Positions 9,254 through 16,711 of a stretch of 42,613 nt of DNA are shown piece after piece (position 1 is the stretch's first letter; each line of letters begins with the position of its first letter). The notes under the pieces were generated by a model, which did no database searches, was not told the DNA's origin, and was given only the letters and a program-made list of their open reading frames with translations. The stretch is from the IMG/VR virus record IMGVR_UViG_2703718839_000008; one strand, written 5' to 3'. The DNA is from a virus (Duplodnaviria > Heunggongvirae > Uroviricota > Caudoviricetes). A program made the position numbers and the translations under genes.

Positions 9254-10195
9254 ATGAGCACTAAATTAACCGGCTATGTATGGGATGGTTGCGCAGCGTC
9301 AGGCATGAAATTATCCAGCGTGGCAATTATGGCCCGCCTGGCTGATTTCAGTAATGACGAAGGTGTGTGCTGGCCATCAATTGAAACCATTGCCCGCCAG
9401 ATTGGCGCGGGGATGAGTACCGTCAGAACGGCTATCGCACGGCTGGAAGCAGAAGGCTGGTTAACGCGTAAGGCGCGTCGCCAGGGTAACCGCAATGCGT
9501 CGAATGTTTATCAGCTTAACGTTGCGAAGCTTCAGGCAGCGGCATTTTCTCAACTGTCAGATTCTGACCCGTCAAAATCTGACGCATCAAAATCTGACCC
9601 GTCAAAATTTGATGCGTCGAAATCTGGCAAAAAAGCGGGTTTTCACCCGTCAGAATCTGGCGGGGATCCGTCAGTAAAATCAAAACATGATCCGTCAGAT
9701 AAAAAACCTTCTCGTCCGGACGCTTCGCAACCGGACACGCAGACGGCTGAACAGGATTTTTTAACTCGCCATCCTGATGCGGTTGTATTCAGCCCTAAAA
9801 AACGCCAGTGGGGGACGCAGGATGATTTGACCTGCGCACAGTGGCTCTGGAAAAAAATCATCGCCCTGTACGAGCAGGCTGCCGAATGTGACGGCGAGGT
9901 GGTTCGTCCCAAAGAACCGAACTGGACAGCCTGGGCAAACGAAATTCGCCTGATGTGTGTGCAGGATGGTCGTACTCACAAACAAATCTGCGAGATGTAC
10001 AGCCGCGTCAGCCGCGATCCGTTCTGGTGCCGTAACGTGCTCAGCCCGTCGAAGCTGCGGGAAAAATGGGATGAGCTTTCCCTGCGCTTATCGCCGTCCG
10101 TCAGCACATACACAGAAAAACGTGAAGATCCGTACTTCAAATCCAGTTACGACAACGTGGACTACAGCCAGATCCCGGCAGGATTCAGGGGGTGA
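9254..10195 (+). CDS. Replication initiator (lambda O-like role) with origin iterons inside the gene
   Basis: N-terminal winged-helix-like region; internal DNA direct repeats encode repeated SDPSKSDASKSDPSKFDASKS linker. Confidence 0.6.
   Translation: MSTKLTGYVWDGCAASGMKLSSVAIMARLADFSNDEGVCWPSIETIARQIGAGMSTVRTAIARLEAEGWLTRKARRQGNRNASNVYQLNVAKLQAAAFSQLSDSDPSKSDASKSDPSKFDASKSGKKAGFHPSESGGDPSVKSKHDPSDKKPSRPDASQPDTQTAEQDFLTRHPDAVVFSPKKRQWGTQDDLTCAQWLWKKIIALYEQAAECDGEVVRPKEPNWTAWANEIRLMCVQDGRTHKQICEMYSRVSRDPFWCRNVLSPSKLREKWDELSLRLSPSVSTYTEKREDPYFKSSYDNVDYSQIPAGFRG
9556..9662. repeat. Origin iterons: 15-bp-spaced direct repeats of GTCAAAATCTGAC-like units
   Basis: Copies starting near 9556, 9571, 9586, 9601, 9616 and 9648. 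Confidence 0.65.
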
Positions 10196-10197
10196 TC

Positions 10198-10686
10198 ATG
10201 AGTCTTTTGAATGAAGTTCAGAAATTCATTGAAGCCCATCCGGGGTGTACTTCCGGAGACATTGCGGATGCTTTTGCAGGTTACTCACGGCAGCGCGTTC
10301 TGCAGTCAGCAAGCAAGTTACGTCAGAGTGGGCGTGTGGCTCACCGTTGTGAAGGAGATACACGCAGACATTTCTCGCGCCTGACTGAGAGAGCGCAGGA
10401 GCCGGAACCACAACCAGTTCGTGAAACCAGACCTGTGCGCAAGTTCTATGTCGGCACTAACGACCCCCGGGTGATTTTGTGCCTGACCCGCCAGGCTGAA
10501 GAACTGGAGTCGAGGGGCTTATACCGTCGTGCTGCAACGGTGTGGATGGCGGCATTCCGTGAAAGCCACTCCCAGCCAGAACGAAACAATTTTCTGGCGC
10601 GTCGTGAACGGTGTTTACGGAAAAGCAGTAAGCGGGCTGCATCAGGTGAAGAGTGGTATCTCTCAGGGAATTACGTGGGGGCTTAA
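10198..10686 (+). CDS. Putative regulator with PerC-like C-terminal motif
   Basis: AEELESRGLYRRAATVWMAAF resembles the PerC/Pch signature; ATG just after O-like stop. Confidence 0.35.
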   Translation: MSLLNEVQKFIEAHPGCTSGDIADAFAGYSRQRVLQSASKLRQSGRVAHRCEGDTRRHFSRLTERAQEPEPQPVRETRPVRKFYVGTNDPRVILCLTRQAEELESRGLYRRAATVWMAAFRESHSQPERNNFLARRERCLRKSSKRAASGEEWYLSGNYVGA

Positions 10687-11339
10687 TGAGTAATAAATAT
10701 TGCCAGGCGCTGGCGGAACTGCGGAACAAACCAGCCCATGAACTGAAGGAAGTGGGCGATCAGTGGCGCACGCCGGACAACATTTTCTGGGGAATTAACA
10801 CCCTGTTTGGCCCGTTTGTTCTGGATCTGTTCACTGACGGTGATAACGCCAAATGTGCTGCGTATTACACGGCGGAAGACAACGCGCTGGCGCATGACTG
10901 GTCAGAACGCCTTGCGGAGCTTAAAGGTGCTGCCTTTGGTAATCCCCCATACAGCCGCGCCAGTCAGCATGAGGGGCAATACATCACCGGCATGCGTTAC
11001 ATCATGAAGCATGCCAGTGCCATGCGTGATAAAGGCGGGCGCTATGTTTTCCTGATCAAAGCTGCCACCAGCGAAGTGTGGTGGCCGGAAGATGCAGATC
11101 ATATTGCTTTTATTCGCGGGCGTATTGGTTTTGAACTGCCTGCCTGGTTTATCCCGAAGGATGAGAAGCAGGTGCCGACAGGCGCTTTCTTCGCTGGTGC
11201 TATTGCTGTTTTCGACAAGACCTGGAAGGGACCGGCAATCAGCTACATCGGGCGCGATGAACTTGAGGCATGTGGTGAGGCCTTTCTGGCGCAGGTTCGC
11301 CAGCAGGCAGAAAAACTGGTCAGGGAGATGGCGGCATGA
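10686..11339 (+). CDS. Phage N6-adenine DNA methyltransferase (Dam-like), orphan
   Basis: GNPPYS catalytic motif; no adjacent endonuclease. Confidence 0.7.
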   Translation: MSNKYCQALAELRNKPAHELKEVGDQWRTPDNIFWGINTLFGPFVLDLFTDGDNAKCAAYYTAEDNALAHDWSERLAELKGAAFGNPPYSRASQHEGQYITGMRYIMKHASAMRDKGGRYVFLIKAATSEVWWPEDADHIAFIRGRIGFELPAWFIPKDEKQVPTGAFFAGAIAVFDKTWKGPAISYIGRDELEACGEAFLAQVRQQAEKLVREMAA

Positions 11340-11662
11340 CGACGTTAACTCAATGCCAGCAGCAGGTGCTGGATATGCTGATTTCTTATCAGAAAGAACG
11401 TGGCTTCCCGCCAACCAATCAGGAGGTGGCAACCATGCTGGGATACCGTTCAGTGAATGCAGCGGTGGAGCATCTTCGCGCACTGGAGAAAAAAGGCGTC
11501 ATCACGATAAAGCGTGGCGTGGCCCGGGGCATCACGCTTCATACCGCGGTGAAGGACGACGACAGCGAGGCGGTCGGGATTATCCGCGCACTGCTTGCCG
11601 GTGAGGCAAACGCCAGGCTGCGTGCAGCCCACTGGTTACATGAGAGGGGCCTGAAAGTATGA
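11336..11662 (+). CDS. LexA N-terminal DNA-binding-domain homolog lacking the S24 cleavage domain, 108 aa
   Basis: Aligns by eye to the LexA N-terminus (LT.RQQEV.D.I.....G.PPT..E.A..LG.RS.NAA.EHL.AL..KGVI.I..G..RGI.L); ends after the DNA-binding domain. Confidence 0.7.
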   Translation: MTTLTQCQQQVLDMLISYQKERGFPPTNQEVATMLGYRSVNAAVEHLRALEKKGVITIKRGVARGITLHTAVKDDDSEAVGIIRALLAGEANARLRAAHWLHERGLKV

Positions 11663-12878: not shown

Positions 12879-13874
12879 GTGACCGTGAGAGCACTACTGA
12901 CCCCTGAAATAGCCCCGCGTATGGGGATTGTATTGTTCAGACCAGGTTCAGAGCTGATGCCCCTGTTTATGCAGGGGCGTGTCCTGCTGGAGCCTGAGCC
13001 GGAACGTTATTCATCTTTCGCCAGTGGTGCCGTTCCGGCGGCATCACAACCGCTGGCGGATGATCCTGCCGTTAGGGCCGTGTTCCGCAATGAGGCAGTG
13101 ATCCGTCGTGCTGGTGGCGTGGAATGTCTTGAAAGCTGGTTACTTCGTGAAAAAGGCTGCCAGTGGCCTCATTCCGACTGGCACAGCGAGAACATGACCA
13201 CAATGCGACACGCGCCGGGCGCGATCCGTCTGTGCTGGCACTGCGATAACCAGCTGCGCGATCAGTTCACGGAACGGCTGGAATCAATGGCAACGGATAA
13301 CTGTGCCCGCTGGGTGTTGTCTGTAGTCCGTCTGGATCTCGGTTTTGATGATAACCATGCCGTGACAATGCCGGAACTGTGCTGGTGGCTGATTCGTAAT
13401 GACCTGGCGGATGCCTTACCGGAAAGTGCAGCCCGTAAGGCACTGAGATTACCGAAGCCTGTTGTGCCGTCTGTCACCCGGGAAAGTGACCTTGTGCCTT
13501 CGGTTCCTGCCACCAGCATCATCCAGGATAAGGCGAAAAAGGTGCTGGCGCTGAAAGTGGATCCGGAGTCGCCGGAGTCTTTTATGTTACGCCCAAAACG
13601 CCGCCGCTGGGTTAATGAAAAGTACACGCGCTGGGTTAAGACACAGCCGTGTGCATGTTGTGGAAAGCCTGCTGATGATCCCCACCACCTGATAGGCCAC
13701 GGTCAGGGTGGAATGGGTACAAAAGCGCATGACCTCTTTGTGTTGCCTTTGTGCAGAAAGCATCACGACGAGCTGCATGCGGATACCGTGGCATTTGAAG
13801 AGAAGTATGGCTCTCAGCTGGAGCTGATATTTCGTTTTATCGATCGTGCGCTGGCAATTGGCGTATTGGCGTAA
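12879..13874 (+). CDS. DUF968-family nin-region protein (putative HNH-like C-terminus)
   Basis: C-terminal CACCGKPADDPHHLIGHG...LCRKHHDELH; GTG start. Confidence 0.6.
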   Translation: MTVRALLTPEIAPRMGIVLFRPGSELMPLFMQGRVLLEPEPERYSSFASGAVPAASQPLADDPAVRAVFRNEAVIRRAGGVECLESWLLREKGCQWPHSDWHSENMTTMRHAPGAIRLCWHCDNQLRDQFTERLESMATDNCARWVLSVVRLDLGFDDNHAVTMPELCWWLIRNDLADALPESAARKALRLPKPVVPSVTRESDLVPSVPATSIIQDKAKKVLALKVDPESPESFMLRPKRRRWVNEKYTRWVKTQPCACCGKPADDPHHLIGHGQGGMGTKAHDLFVLPLCRKHHDELHADTVAFEEKYGSQLELIFRFIDRALAIGVLA

Positions 13875-13887
13875 GTGGAGAACGAGC

Positions 13888-14640
13888 ATGAACCTTGAAG
13901 CCTTACCAAAATATTACTCCCCAAAATCTCCAAAATTGAGCGATGACGCACCGGCGACAGGCTCAGGTGGTTTAACGATTACGGATGTGATGGCTGCGCA
14001 GGGGATGGTGCAGTCGAAAGCACCGCTTGGGTTTGCCTTATTCCTGGCAAAAGTTGGTGTTCAGGATCCTCAATTTGCGATTGAAGGTCTGCTCAATTAC
14101 GCGATGGCACTGGATAACCCGACATTGAACAAATTGAGTGAAGAAACCCGGTTACAGATCATCCCTTACCTTGTGAATTTTGCCTTTGCTGATTATTCCA
14201 GGTCTGCGGCAAGTAAGGCTCGCTGTGAGCATTGTGCTGGTACTGGATTTCATAATGTATTGCGCGAAGTGGTGAAACACTCCAGAAGCGGGGAATCTGT
14301 TATCAAGGAAGAGTGGGTGAAGGAACTATGTCAGCATTGTCATGGTAAGGGAGAAGTCAGCACAGCGTGCAGAGGGTGTAAGGGTAAAGGTATTGTCCTG
14401 GATGAAAAAAGGACCCGGCTTCATGGCACGCCTGTTTATAAGATTTGTGGGCGTTGCAATGGAAACCGGTTTAGCCGTTTACCAACCACACTGGCGCGGC
14501 ATCATGTCCAGAAGCTGGTACCAGACCTGACGGATTATCAGTGGTACAAAGGATATGCAGATGTCATTGATAAACTGGTTACAAAGTGCTGGCAGGAAGA
14601 AGCATATGCAGAGATACAATTGAGAAAGGTGACAAGATAA
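13888..14640 (+). CDS. Late-gene antiterminator Q-like protein
   Basis: Multiple CxxC zinc-binding pairs; immediately upstream of the PR'-like promoter and terminator; GGAG RBS at MNLEAL. The ORF could instead start at 13846. Confidence 0.65.
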   Translation: MNLEALPKYYSPKSPKLSDDAPATGSGGLTITDVMAAQGMVQSKAPLGFALFLAKVGVQDPQFAIEGLLNYAMALDNPTLNKLSEETRLQIIPYLVNFAFADYSRSAASKARCEHCAGTGFHNVLREVVKHSRSGESVIKEEWVKELCQHCHGKGEVSTACRGCKGKGIVLDEKRTRLHGTPVYKICGRCNGNRFSRLPTTLARHHVQKLVPDLTDYQWYKGYADVIDKLVTKCWQEEAYAEIQLRKVTR

Positions 14641-14671: not shown

Positions 14672-14700
14672 TTGCATTTTTCAAAAAATATGGATAAGAT
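14672..14700 (+). promoter_or_regulatory. PR'-like late promoter (with presumed qut region)
   Basis: TTGCAT, 17-bp spacer, TAAGAT, directly after the Q-like gene. Confidence 0.55.
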
Positions 14701-14744
14701 TTTCCCAACGATGGGCTTTGTATGTCTACCGTTGATAAGATTTA

Positions 14745-14772
14745 GGAACCCGCCACTGAGCGGGTTTTTTGT
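14745..14772 (+). terminator. tR'-like terminator about 40-65 nt downstream of PR'
   Basis: cccgc-cactga-gcggg followed by TTTTTT. Confidence 0.7.
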
Positions 14773-14892
14773 ACCTGTAAACTTGGTGCAGTACAGTAAA
14801 CACGCTGGTGGTCGTGAATACTGACTTTTTATCTTGCTGGATTTTTAGACAAGAGTTATTGGTATGTCATGTTAACCAGAAGGGAAAAAGAC

Positions 14893-15096
14893 ATGCTAAA
14901 ACAGCAAGATATGACAGAAACCGCCGCCGCAGTCCTTCATTTCTTACCTGCTGACAAGTGGGTAACGCCACGCATGATGACGAGAACTACCGGAGTAAGC
15001 GAAGCCCGGTGCCAGTTAATACTGACTCAGTTAGTTCTGGCGGGTCTGGCGAAGGATAACGGCGGGTACGGGAATAAATTCAGACGCTGCCAGTAA
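14893..15096 (+). CDS. Small putative winged-helix protein (FaeA/PapI-like architecture), about 67 aa
   Basis: ...TRTTGVSEARCQLILTQLVLAGLAKDNGG... reads as an HTH recognition helix plus wing; ORF-track start at 14869 is also possible. Confidence 0.35.
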   Translation: MLKQQDMTETAAAVLHFLPADKWVTPRMMTRTTGVSEARCQLILTQLVLAGLAKDNGGYGNKFRRCQ

Positions 15097-15246
15097 TGGC
15101 GGTTTCCTGCTGTGAAAATGGGCGGCTGGTGGGTGTTGGTAGCACCTGCCAGCCATTCGCTCATGCTTACTGGTCACAAGCGAACCACGGCCCACTGCTT
15201 TAGCGCAAAAGCAGAGTGAGCCTACCAGAGTTACGCTTACTGATCC

Positions 15247-16299
15247 ATGAAAAATACTGTAAAAATAAACAGTGTTGATTTAATCAACGCTGATTGCCTG
15301 CATTTTATTCAGTCCTTGCCTGATGATTCCATTGATCTGATTGTTACCGATCCGCCGTACTTCAAAGTGAAGCCCAACGGCTGGGACAATCAGTGGAAAG
15401 GGGACGAAGATTACCTGAAGTGGCTGGACTACTGTCTGGCCCAGTTCTGGCGGGTACTGAAACCAGCCGGAAGCCTTTACCTGTTCTGTGGACATCGCCT
15501 CGCATCTGATATCGAGATCATGATGCGTGAACGTTTCAACGTGCTTAACCATATCATCTGGGCGAAGCCGTCCGGACGATGGAACGGGTGTAATAAAGAA
15601 AGCCTGCGGGCATATTTCCCCGCTACAGAGCGCGTTCTGTTTGCTGAACATTACCAGGGGCCATATCGCGGCAAAAGTGACGGCTATGCGGCAAAAGAAA
15701 GGGAACTCAAACAGCACATAATGGCACCGCTGATATCGTATTTCAGGGATGCTCGTGCCGAACTGGGTATAACGGCAAAACAAATTGCCGAAGCCACAGG
15801 TAAGAAAAATATGGTTTCCCACTGGTTTGGTGCCAGTCAGTGGCAGTTGCCGAATGAGGCTGACTATCGGAAGTTACAGGCACTGTTTTCCCGTATAGCG
15901 GCAGAGAAGTTTCAGGAACAACAACTGGAACAACCACACCACCAGCTGGTGGCATCTTATGATTCACTGAATCGCAAATATTCTGAATTGCTGGATGAGT
16001 TTAAATCTCTCCGGCGCTATTTCTCCGTATCAGTCTCCGTGCCTTATACCGATGTCTGGACGCATAAGCCCGTTCAGTTCTACCCGGGTAAACATCCGTG
16101 CGAGAAACCGGCGGATATGCTCCGGCAAATAATCAATGCCAGTAGTCGACCTGGTGATCTGGTTGCTGATTTCTTTATGGGATCCGGTTCCACAATAAAA
16201 GCAGCAATGGCGCTGGGGCGTCGGGCGTTAGGTGTTGAACTTGAGTCAGAGCGGTTTAATCAGACGGTGAAAGAGGTAAGTGAACTGGTGGGGAAATAA
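15247..16299 (+). CDS. DNA methyltransferase (beta-class N6A/N4C type), orphan, in the late region
   Basis: N-terminal DPPY motif (LIVTDPPYF) and C-terminal FMGSGST AdoMet motif; no adjacent nuclease. Confidence 0.75.
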   Translation: MKNTVKINSVDLINADCLHFIQSLPDDSIDLIVTDPPYFKVKPNGWDNQWKGDEDYLKWLDYCLAQFWRVLKPAGSLYLFCGHRLASDIEIMMRERFNVLNHIIWAKPSGRWNGCNKESLRAYFPATERVLFAEHYQGPYRGKSDGYAAKERELKQHIMAPLISYFRDARAELGITAKQIAEATGKKNMVSHWFGASQWQLPNEADYRKLQALFSRIAAEKFQEQQLEQPHHQLVASYDSLNRKYSELLDEFKSLRRYFSVSVSVPYTDVWTHKPVQFYPGKHPCEKPADMLRQIINASSRPGDLVADFFMGSGSTIKAAMALGRRALGVELESERFNQTVKEVSELVGK

Positions 16300-16375
16300 T
16301 TCTGGTGGCCACGTTGCGTGGCCTTTTTATTTCCAACACAGCACCCGCAAATATCGCGAGGTGAGAGATGACGAA

Positions 16376-16711
16376 ATGCCTCATAACCCAAATACCTGGC
16401 CGGACTGGCTGGAGTTGTTTCAGAGCTGGTGGCGTGGAGACACACCGCTGGGTGCAGTGATTATGTCGATCGTTATGGCTGGTTTGCGCATCGCCTATTT
16501 TGGCGGTGGTGGTGGCTGGAAGCGAAAAACGCTCGAGATTTTGCTATGTGGCGCTCTGACGCTGACCTTTGCATCCGCTCTTGAATATGTCGGATGGCCT
16601 AAATCGCTTTCTGTTGCCATTGGTGGTGGCGTGGGGCTGATCGGTGTCGATGCTATTCGTGGGGCTGCAATGCGAGTAATCGGTAACAAATTTGGTAGCT
16701 CGAAGGAGTAA
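16376..16711 (+). CDS. Holin (lambda S-like family)
   Basis: Transmembrane helices with charged C-terminus; GAVIMSIVMAGLRIAYFGG resembles lambda S GIGAILAFAMAYLRG; directly upstream of endolysin. Start uncertain. Confidence 0.65.
   Translation: MPHNPNTWPDWLELFQSWWRGDTPLGAVIMSIVMAGLRIAYFGGGGGWKRKTLEILLCGALTLTFASALEYVGWPKSLSVAIGGGVGLIGVDAIRGAAMRVIGNKFGSSKE

Follow-up and report, generated by a model that had tools for sequence, protein, structure and literature searches.

An M.EcoGII-family adenine methyltransferase in the late region of a lambdoid prophage is preceded by a conserved RNA leader and a small winged-helix gene

We analyzed a two-gene cassette in a 42,613-nucleotide stretch of viral DNA (IMG/VR record IMGVR_UViG_2703718839_000008), referred to here as the window. 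The second gene encodes an adenine methyltransferase of the M.EcoGII family, and the first encodes a small winged-helix protein. We observed intrinsic terminators on both sides of the cassette, a conserved RNA leader directly upstream of the methyltransferase start, and synteny with the winged-helix gene across related loci. We favor, with reasonable but not firm confidence, the reading that this is a late-expressed, non-specific anti-restriction methylase, insulated by terminators and gated in its translation by the leader, with the winged-helix protein as a dedicated accessory and most likely a regulator. The enzyme itself is known; the leader and the winged-helix partner appear to be new, and the arrangement appears to be a variant of com/mom-style control. 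The cassette has the following features, with lengths in nucleotides (nt) or amino acids (aa).

About 14747-14770 (+): intrinsic terminator tR', AACCCGC-CACTGA-GCGGGTT followed by a T-run
14833-14870 (+): promoter-like element, CTTGCTG-N10-CAGAGTTAT(C/T)TGT(A/G)TGTCA, conserved across 36 loci
14834-14839 and 14857-14862 (+): candidate -35 (TTGCTG) and candidate -10 (TATTGG) within this element, at 17 bp spacing
14893-15096 (+): small winged-helix gene, 67 aa, assigned by phrog_331 and a predicted winged helix; an alternative start at 14869 gives 75 aa
15086-15103 (+): hairpin with the winged-helix stop codon in its loop, then a short U-rich tract (-11.9 kcal/mol); a weak terminator or attenuator candidate
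15111-15222 (+): structured RNA leader of ~130 nt, assigned by covariation; the covariance-model match covers 15092-15255
15111-15115/15174-15178 (+): leader helix P1, UGUGA/UCACA
15118-15123/15159-15164 (+): leader helix P2, AUGGGC/GCUCAU
15124-15154 (+): leader hairpin A (P3-P4), from RNAalifold
15189-15222 (+): leader hairpin B, from RNAalifold
15247-16299 (+): M.EcoGII-family beta-class N6-adenine DNA methyltransferase, 350 aa, assigned by PF01555 and identity to M.EcoGII
15349-15360 (+): DPPY motif, aa 35-38, the N-terminal motif of the beta-class order
About 15724-15957 (+): target recognition domain (TRD) with a helix-turn-helix; a weak HTH_3 match lies at aa 167-193
16174-16188 (+): FxGxG motif (FMGSG), aa 310-314, the C-terminal motif of the beta-class order
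16307-16331 (+): intrinsic terminator in the gap between methylase and holin (stem 16307-16323), GGCCACG-TTG-CGTGGCC followed by TTTTTATTT

The methyltransferase matched PF01555 (N6_N4_Mtase; E = 3.2e-42) over aa 29-341, with an insertion of ~130 aa. Its motifs run from DPPY through the TRD to FxGxG, which is the beta-class order. The protein shared 81% identity with M.EcoGII over the full length (283/349 residues, 2 gaps), 89% with Anc291 and 70% with SUPREM; these three reference sequences were machine-read from the supplementary PDF of PMC11551740 and may hold a few errors. Identity to the methylases of SfV (orf48), mEp460, cdtI and Ayreon was 98-99%. On these identities, the window methylase is a new member of the known M.EcoGII family.

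M.EcoGII is a 349-aa beta-class enzyme from a prophage of Escherichia coli O104:H4 C227-11 (Murray et al. 2018, PMC5778455). It acts on adenine whatever the context, also methylates RNA and is fully active alone; its helical TRD with a helix-turn-helix spans residues 160-237, and its overexpression slows growth (PMC5778455). M.EcoGI and M.EcoGII both lie on prophages and are reported to stay silent in lysogens and to do harm on overexpression (PMC5778455). The engineered enzymes Anc291, a reconstructed ancestor, and SUPREM are reported to be active and largely non-sequence-specific (PMC11551740). Extrapolated from these three assayed relatives, which bracket it well, the window methylase would also be non-specific. 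M.EcoGIX is not this non-specific prophage enzyme; it is plasmid-borne. The start codon of the window methylase had no convincing Shine-Dalgarno sequence (CTTACTGATCCATG). As a separate observation, a Dam GATC site (15243-15246) abuts the methylase ATG, and TGATC(C/T)ATG is kept in nearly all Enterobacterales cassettes.

To survey the locus, one genome per species was scanned. This gave 33 loci from Mangrovibacter, Plesiomonas, Buttiauxella, Providencia, Proteus, Kluyvera, Citrobacter, Salmonella, Klebsiella, Mixta, Scandinavium and other genera. An M.EcoGII-family gene (56-93% identity) began 134-154 nt past the stop codon of the small open reading frame (ORF) in 28 of the 33 loci. A 29th locus (L090) had the methylase and a premature stop in the small ORF. 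One locus was cut by a contig end with the leader still there, another (L120) kept most of the leader and no methylase, and two were deletion remnants with only the first 29 codons. Approached from the methylase side, four of five contexts showed the promoter-like motif, winged-helix gene, leader and methylase in order (Pantoea, Klebsiella and E. coli, the E. coli enzyme being 90% identical to M.EcoGII). The pairing of small ORF and methyltransferase, which an earlier note on this DNA had found suggestive, is a genuine conserved module and not an accident of neighborhood.

A collection of phage genomes held 57 records with the small ORF and 95 with the methylase. A scan of viral contigs with a winged-helix profile returned 80 identical copies and no diversity. 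In the methylase protein search, the matches listed were all at least 76% identical, and the distant contexts described below were taken from the phage collection. The SfV methylase was 98.9% identical to that of the window, whereas its small protein was only 51% identical. By this contrast, the divergent positions of the small protein change independently of the enzyme.

We observed that the 150-nt spacer between the two genes (15097-15246) was the most conserved non-coding sequence of the region, exceeding both flanking genes. Its changes were compensatory: GGCTGG/CCAGCC became GACTGT/ACAGTC in Providencia and GACAG/CTGTC in one Proteus. The minimum free energy of the leader had a z-score of -3.3. 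In a first, plain MAFFT alignment of 33 sequences, the RNAalifold consensus had 96.8% of cells paired and 7 pairs with changes on both sides. None of 500 shuffles reached the observed value for four of five measures (17/500 for pair-type diversity), and slid controls were 33-46% paired.

A covariance model built from the MAFFT alignment matched each locus once only, always on the sense strand and directly upstream of the methylase. It also found homologous leaders with entirely different hairpin sequences in N15 (E = 1e-5), in PY54 and phiKO2 (E = 1e-13 to 3e-16), in Serratia phage OS31, in Vibrio phages VHML and Val-yong3, and in Aeromonas phage phiARM81ld. In a model-fitted alignment of 26 sequences, to which the N15, PY54, phiKO2, VHML and Aeromonas leaders had been added, 95.4% of cells were paired and 20/31 pairs were double-sided (0/500 shuffles; slid controls 32-44%). 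A model-fitted alignment favors structure, and the MAFFT result serves as the unbiased check. Rfam (release 15) gave nothing at E ≤ 1 over 15097-15246 or for the leaders of six divergent phages. We found no paper on this RNA, which appears to be previously uncatalogued.

The link between leader and enzyme is tighter than that between small ORF and enzyme. Phages Eeyore (82% identical methylase), OS31 and N15 have the order terminator, leader, methylase, and the small ORF is missing from between them. An alternative hairpin, UUCGCU/AGCGAA, competes with P1 and P2 and had two covarying pairs in the MAFFT alignment. P1 and P2 were kept once the divergent leaders had been added, and a conformational switch is possible. 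The structured part ends about 25 nt short of the methylase AUG. We rejected a spacer-encoded peptide (ORFs 15096-15203 and 15112-15219): the frame stops in Providencia and Proteus, and the substitutions compensate base pairing. Sub-threshold isrK-like matches were seen in Serratia phage OS31 (L134, 1215-1276) and Yersinia phage PY54 (L135, 987-1062), where they cover the short transcript from late promoter to terminator just upstream of the leader. isrK is a late-region Hfq-binding RNA of Gifsy-1.

Both ORFs described in the earlier note, 14869-15096 (+, 75 aa) and 15247-16299 (+, 350 aa), exist. For the small gene, the true start is probably the second ATG, at 14893, on three sequence features: AAGGG lies 8 nt upstream of it (14880-14884), nearly all homologues begin MLKQQDMTE, and frame-shifting indels occur upstream among homologues. 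The small protein matched phrog_331 (function unknown; E = 3e-26), and there were 91 database homologues. Its ORF was intact (63-69 aa) in 35 of 36 sequences, namely the window and 35 loci. Identity among variants fell to 43-50%, with the N-terminal DMT motif and helix 3 essentially invariant. The only exception in helix 3 (RCQLILTQL) was an R-to-C change in one locus (L119). Its codons were free at synonymous sites, with four Arg, five Leu and four Thr codons in use. An invariant helix 3 with free synonymous change indicates selection on the protein and not on an embedded nucleic-acid signal, and a hidden nucleic-acid element in these codons is ruled out. By these patterns of conservation, the small ORF is a real gene and not a chance ORF.

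An AlphaFold model built on a 22-sequence alignment gave a winged helix of the order H-S-H-H-S-S (pLDDT 87, pTM 0.75), which bears out the winged-helix-like segment seen in the earlier note. The matches in fold searches were generic winged helices throughout, none of them better than E ~1e-3: Zalpha domains of ADAR1 and of poxviruses, IclR N-domains, TrmBL2, NsrR, the mRNA-binding winged helix of SelB and the DprA C-domain. Sub-threshold Pfam matches among the 22 members were to TrmB (19/22), MarR_2 (15/22) and DprA_WH (12/22). The protein has two Cys and no CxxC pair, and hence is not a Com-type zinc finger. It belongs to no Pfam or NCBIfam family and appears to be undescribed.

The likeness to FaeA/PapI that the earlier note had seen did not hold at the family level. 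PF04703 (FaeA) was found in none of the 22 family members at E ≤ 10 and not in the window protein at E ≤ 1. The positive control, a PapI sequence, matched that profile at 110 bits (E = 6.5e-32). Aligned with PapI by hhalign, the family reached a probability of 33% (E = 4.5e-4, 18% identity, 45 columns). A profile search of PDB sequences at E ≤ 10 retrieved neither PapI nor PefI, and PefI (2jt1) stood at rank 41 in the fold search (TM about 0.6). The likeness to PapI is only that both are small winged helices.

The hairpin at the winged-helix stop codon covaried between its coding and non-coding arms across Enterobacteriaceae. Proteus and Providencia lack it; there the stop codon directly adjoins helix P1 of the leader or overlaps with it.

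Upstream of the small gene, we observed a promoter-like element in which TTG, AGAG and TA were invariant across the 36 loci. It lies about 25-60 nt upstream of the small ORF start, stays with the winged-helix gene in remnants without the methylase, and follows an intrinsic terminator in nearly all loci (not L112 and L114). In geometry (TTGCTG-17 bp-TA(T/C)NTG), the element is similar to the late promoter annotated in N15 (TTGGCA-17-TATCTT). RNAalifold on 14833-14870 gave no consensus structure, and the element is therefore best read as a DNA-level signal. A single-sequence fold that pairs GUAUGUC with the winged-helix start codon was unsupported across the alignment. By its sequence, the element would be a weak promoter, perhaps activator-dependent.

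By sequence, the window comes from an E. coli prophage of the lambdoid, SfV/mEp460-like kind. Over 81% of its first 25 kb it was 98.6% identical to phage vB_EcoM-720R4, and it had long matches to mEp460, SfV and Shiga toxin (Stx) 2c phages. The order of features is a DUF968 gene, Q, tR', the small ORF, the 150-nt spacer, the methyltransferase, a terminator, holin S, lysozyme and Rz. The earlier note had correctly placed the small ORF after tR' and before a DPPY-type methyltransferase; the terminator hairpin (about 14747-14770) lies past Q. The neighboring features are listed below; the start of Q follows the SfV annotation, and that of holin S was set by analogy with SfV S.

13888-14640 (+): Q antiterminator gene, PF03589 (Antiterm; E = 1.3e-53), sharing 99.6% identity with Q of SfV and of Ayreon
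14672-14700 (+): putative pR' late promoter, TTGCAT-17 bp-TAAGAT, inferred by reading the sequence
16376-16711 (+): holin S, first lysis gene, PF05106 (Phage_holin_3_1; E = 5.9e-27)

The putative pR' had 7 of 12 consensus positions and fell under the scan threshold; its site between Q and the terminator fits a lambdoid pR'. The tR' hairpin folded at -15 kcal/mol (14725-14785). Both Ayreon and SfV have it annotated as a terminator, and it was missing from the output of the promoter/terminator scan. Nearly all related loci (except L112 and L114) had a terminator in the place of tR', with differing self-complementary stems. The terminator between methylase and holin folded at -12.5 kcal/mol and is annotated in the same place in SfV, Ayreon, N15 and phiKO2. 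SfV annotates the same segment as orf47 and orf48 ("unknown") with a terminator on each side, and annotations of the segment exist as well for Ayreon, mEp460, cdtI and many Stx2-converting phages. No tRNA genes of the kind seen in Stx phages were found in the gap between Q and the lysis genes.

Several side observations concern this region and the rest of the window. The Q reading frame (13846-14640) carries an extra signal for a DnaJ-type CXXCXGXG zinc finger (PF00684, E = 3.5e-7, below cut-off). On the minus strand, 14738-14874 gave a sub-threshold full-length match to STnc130, a Salmonella small RNA family (27.7 bits, the gathering score being 55; E = 0.17). This match covers tR' and the promoter-like element on the opposite strand, and the scan also listed a promoter-like site on the minus strand at 14870-14841. 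The nin region holds a second adenine methyltransferase (10653-11339, PF05869 "Dam" family, E = 1.2e-45). It overlaps by 4 nt the gene of a 108-aa protein (11336-11662) that is a LexA DNA-binding winged-helix domain (PF01726, E = 2.9e-19), making another methylase/small winged-helix pairing in the same genome. An ORF in the replication/nin region (10192-10686) has a PerC transcriptional-activator domain (PF06069, E = 7e-9). Prophage PerC homologues cross-talk with virulence regulation in enteropathogenic and enterohemorrhagic E. coli.

In the reading that we favor, the cassette stands at the start of the late (lysis) operon of temperate phages, and the methylase would be made only once Q-modified RNA polymerase passes tR', late in lytic growth. 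Progeny phage DNA would be hyper-methylated and would escape restriction in the next host, the role proposed for M.EcoGII. Unscheduled methylase would be harmful, so its translation would be held in check by the ~130-nt leader in front of a start that lacks a good Shine-Dalgarno sequence. The winged-helix protein, possibly made from its own weak promoter, would use its invariant helix 3 to act on either the leader RNA or the promoter-like DNA of the cassette. It would be a functional analogue of Com for mom, or of the controller proteins of restriction-modification systems. Transcripts from its own promoter would yield the small protein and then largely stop, and Q-modified transcripts from pR' would continue across the leader into the methylase and lysis genes. 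Together, the leader and the winged-helix protein probably keep a toxic enzyme under control.

Several observations weigh against this reading. The lack of specificity is an extrapolation from relatives, the promoter-like element has only 6 of 12 consensus positions, and a helix that would mask the methylase start region was weakly supported (mean z -1.3). In Erwinia endophytica (L126), a methylase of 78% identity follows a terminator and an unrelated upstream region of ~115 nt with neither winged-helix gene nor leader, which shows that the cassette can lose both control elements. Eeyore, OS31 and N15 have leader and methylase without the winged-helix gene, so the winged-helix protein is not essential. 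Conversely, an E. coli Stx-like prophage (L007, 2113-2310) has an intact winged-helix homologue (P0072, from a cluster of 1869 sequences) with the promoter-like element and the first ~30 nt of the leader, then unrelated DNA, a NanS-p-type esterase gene and no methylase. Recombinants of this type, where only the small gene survives, are widespread, and the winged-helix homologue may have an independent role in such prophages.

The strongest rival, which we consider rather unlikely, makes the winged-helix protein a second methylase subunit, part of a holoenzyme with a changed target such as a particular class of RNA or DNA. The strict synteny and the invariant winged-helix surface are consistent with this, and M.EcoGII also methylates RNA (PMC5778455). 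There is also a precedent in the Stx-phage protein PNB-2, which co-purifies 1:1 with an MT-A70 methylase and redirects it to 16S rRNA (PMC10810198). However, the PNB-2 partner belongs to another enzyme family, and M.EcoGII is fully active alone (PMC5778455). Nearly identical methylases are accompanied by winged-helix variants that are only 51% identical, and methylases of 79-82% identity occur with no such partner gene in Eeyore, LLS and Flotzy, none of which appeared among the winged-helix matches. The structured 150-nt spacer between the genes also leaves no translational coupling.

We regard as unlikely an independent moron, in which the winged-helix gene would encode a small transcription factor or an exclusion protein, have its own lysogen promoter and merely share an insertion hot spot past tR'. 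The promoter-like element moves with the gene, a hairpin sits at its stop codon, and the L007-type prophages keep it without the methylase. The small protein also weakly resembled Ren-like exclusion proteins (phrog_142, E = 0.04). A phage moron is a promoter, gene and terminator set between late genes; the cassette has terminators on both sides, and its TTGCTG-17-TATTGG is only promoter-like. However, about 29 of the 33 species-level loci keep a fixed distance to the leader and methylase. Other neighbors were seen only in deletion remnants (L007, L107 and L108), with the junction inside the leader or the gene, and N15-like phages keep a distant homologue, gp51 (hhalign probability 70%), at the same cassette.

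A toxin-antitoxin or addiction-like pair, in which the small DNA-binding protein neutralizes or represses a toxic methylase in the lysogen, is very unlikely. A small DNA-binding gene followed by a toxic enzyme, behind a candidate autoregulated promoter, is a type II-like order, and M.EcoGII overexpression slows growth (PMC5778455), but the structured 150-nt spacer and flanking terminators are unlike such operons, viable phages carry the methylase without the small gene, and no toxin-antitoxin family signal turned up, although no PADLOC search was made.

Least probable of all, to the point of being negligible, is the proposal of the earlier note that a PapI/FaeA-like co-regulator and a methylase form a heritable, methylation-dependent ON/OFF switch: both small proteins are ~70-aa single-domain winged helices, PefI is among the distant fold matches and the hhalign E-value to PapI is low over its 45 columns, but the hhalign probability and identity are also low, PF04703 recovers its control and no family member, a relative of the partner enzyme is silent in lysogens (PMC5778455), and the context is a late lysis operon between terminators, not a fimbrial switch region. 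The partner would moreover be of the non-specific M.EcoGII type, and with no motif such an enzyme cannot write a heritable site pattern. A second methylome motif for this enzyme would not be expected.

Returning to control by leader and winged-helix protein, we raise tentatively, as a possibility that we would not yet bet on, that the leader is a new class of cis-regulatory RNA for M.EcoGII-family methylases, read by helix 3 in Enterobacterales or by Com-like zinc fingers in Aeromonas and Vibrio. We examined the region in SfV, Ayreon, N15, phiKO2, PY54, OS31, phiARM81ld, Val-yong3, VHML and phiO18P. The methylase homologue was the first gene before the holin in all of them except phiO18P (holin first), usually between two terminators. 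In the Aeromonas phage phiARM81ld, an ORF annotated as a "Com-like translational regulator" lies past the leader and overlaps the methylase start. The Vibrio phage Val-yong3 has a 38-aa CxxC...CxxC ORF at that place, and phiO18P has a zinc-finger ORF nearby. If the leader is such an RNA, it would respond to a protein, or possibly to a metabolite (S-adenosylmethionine or S-adenosylhomocysteine), and would span lambdoid, N15-like, Vibrio and Aeromonas phages. Two unrelated small proteins would then have been recruited to one RNA switch gating a genome-wide, non-specific methylase.

M.EcoGII is sold and widely used as a non-specific enzyme for N6-methyladenine "footprinting". We observed that the natural gene is accompanied by a conserved leader and, in Enterobacterales, by a winged-helix protein and a promoter-like element. 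This turns an annotation of "hypothetical protein" and "DNA methylase" into a testable regulatory cassette and a candidate new RNA motif. Stx2a, Stx2c, Stx2d and Stx2k phages have the cassette in their late region from Q to the lysis genes, the known home of stx genes.

The closest known enzyme is M.EcoGII itself, which shares with the window enzyme its length (349-350 aa), its order of DPPY, helical TRD with helix-turn-helix and FxGxG, and its place on a prophage. The M.EcoGII literature (PMC5778455) treats the enzyme alone, without mention of an upstream small ORF or leader. Phage 1720a-02, which carries a close M.EcoGII homologue according to the same paper, has the same pair of winged-helix gene and methylase. 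N15, phiKO2 and PY54 carry in their gene 51-52 region gp51, a late promoter, a terminator, a homologous leader, a methylase (56-60% identical), a terminator and the holin. Their gp51, annotated as a winged helix-turn-helix, matched the small-ORF family by hhalign (E = 4e-5). Unlike in the window, the winged-helix gene of these phages lies upstream of the late promoter and terminator, not downstream.

Three further systems share parts of this design. PapI, FaeA and PefI (PF04703), which work with Dam and Lrp, are also small single-domain winged helices tied somehow to adenine methylation. Their partner Dam is site-specific (GATC) and their setting fimbrial, whereas the cassette shows no family-level signal and no evidence of phase variation. 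In Stx2 phages, PNB-2 is likewise a small winged helix-turn-helix ORF immediately upstream of a phage methylase, M.EcoPA8orf6770P, with which it is co-transcribed and functionally tied (Gong, Chakraborty and Koudelka 2023, PMC10810198). That enzyme differs in belonging to the MT-A70 family, lying at the opposite prophage end and needing its partner for activity, whereas M.EcoGII works alone. The C proteins of restriction-modification systems also place a small DNA-binding protein first, behind a weak and possibly autoregulated promoter, and time a dangerous enzyme. They are XRE-type helix-turn-helix dimers that act on C-boxes and control a nuclease, whereas here there is a winged helix and no nuclease.

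The nearest parallel in design is the com-mom operon of phage Mu, together with the com-methylase operons of Mu-like prophages (Hattman 1999; Drozdz et al. 2012, PMC3299994). mom is a harmful late function under Com-dependent translational control, and Mu-like prophages pair com homologues with non-specific adenine methylases instead of mom (PMC3299994). These operons and the window cassette share a harmful, late, adenine-modifying anti-restriction enzyme in one late transcription unit, with the gene of a small nucleic-acid-binding protein directly upstream and RNA structure near the enzyme start. Within the family of the window methylase, the Com-like zinc-finger ORFs at this place in the Aeromonas and Vibrio phages are a precedent for com-type control. 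Masking of the start codon would here depend on a weakly supported candidate helix. Com is a zinc finger, whereas the window protein is a winged helix whose gene is placed ahead of the leader and does not overlap the enzyme start.

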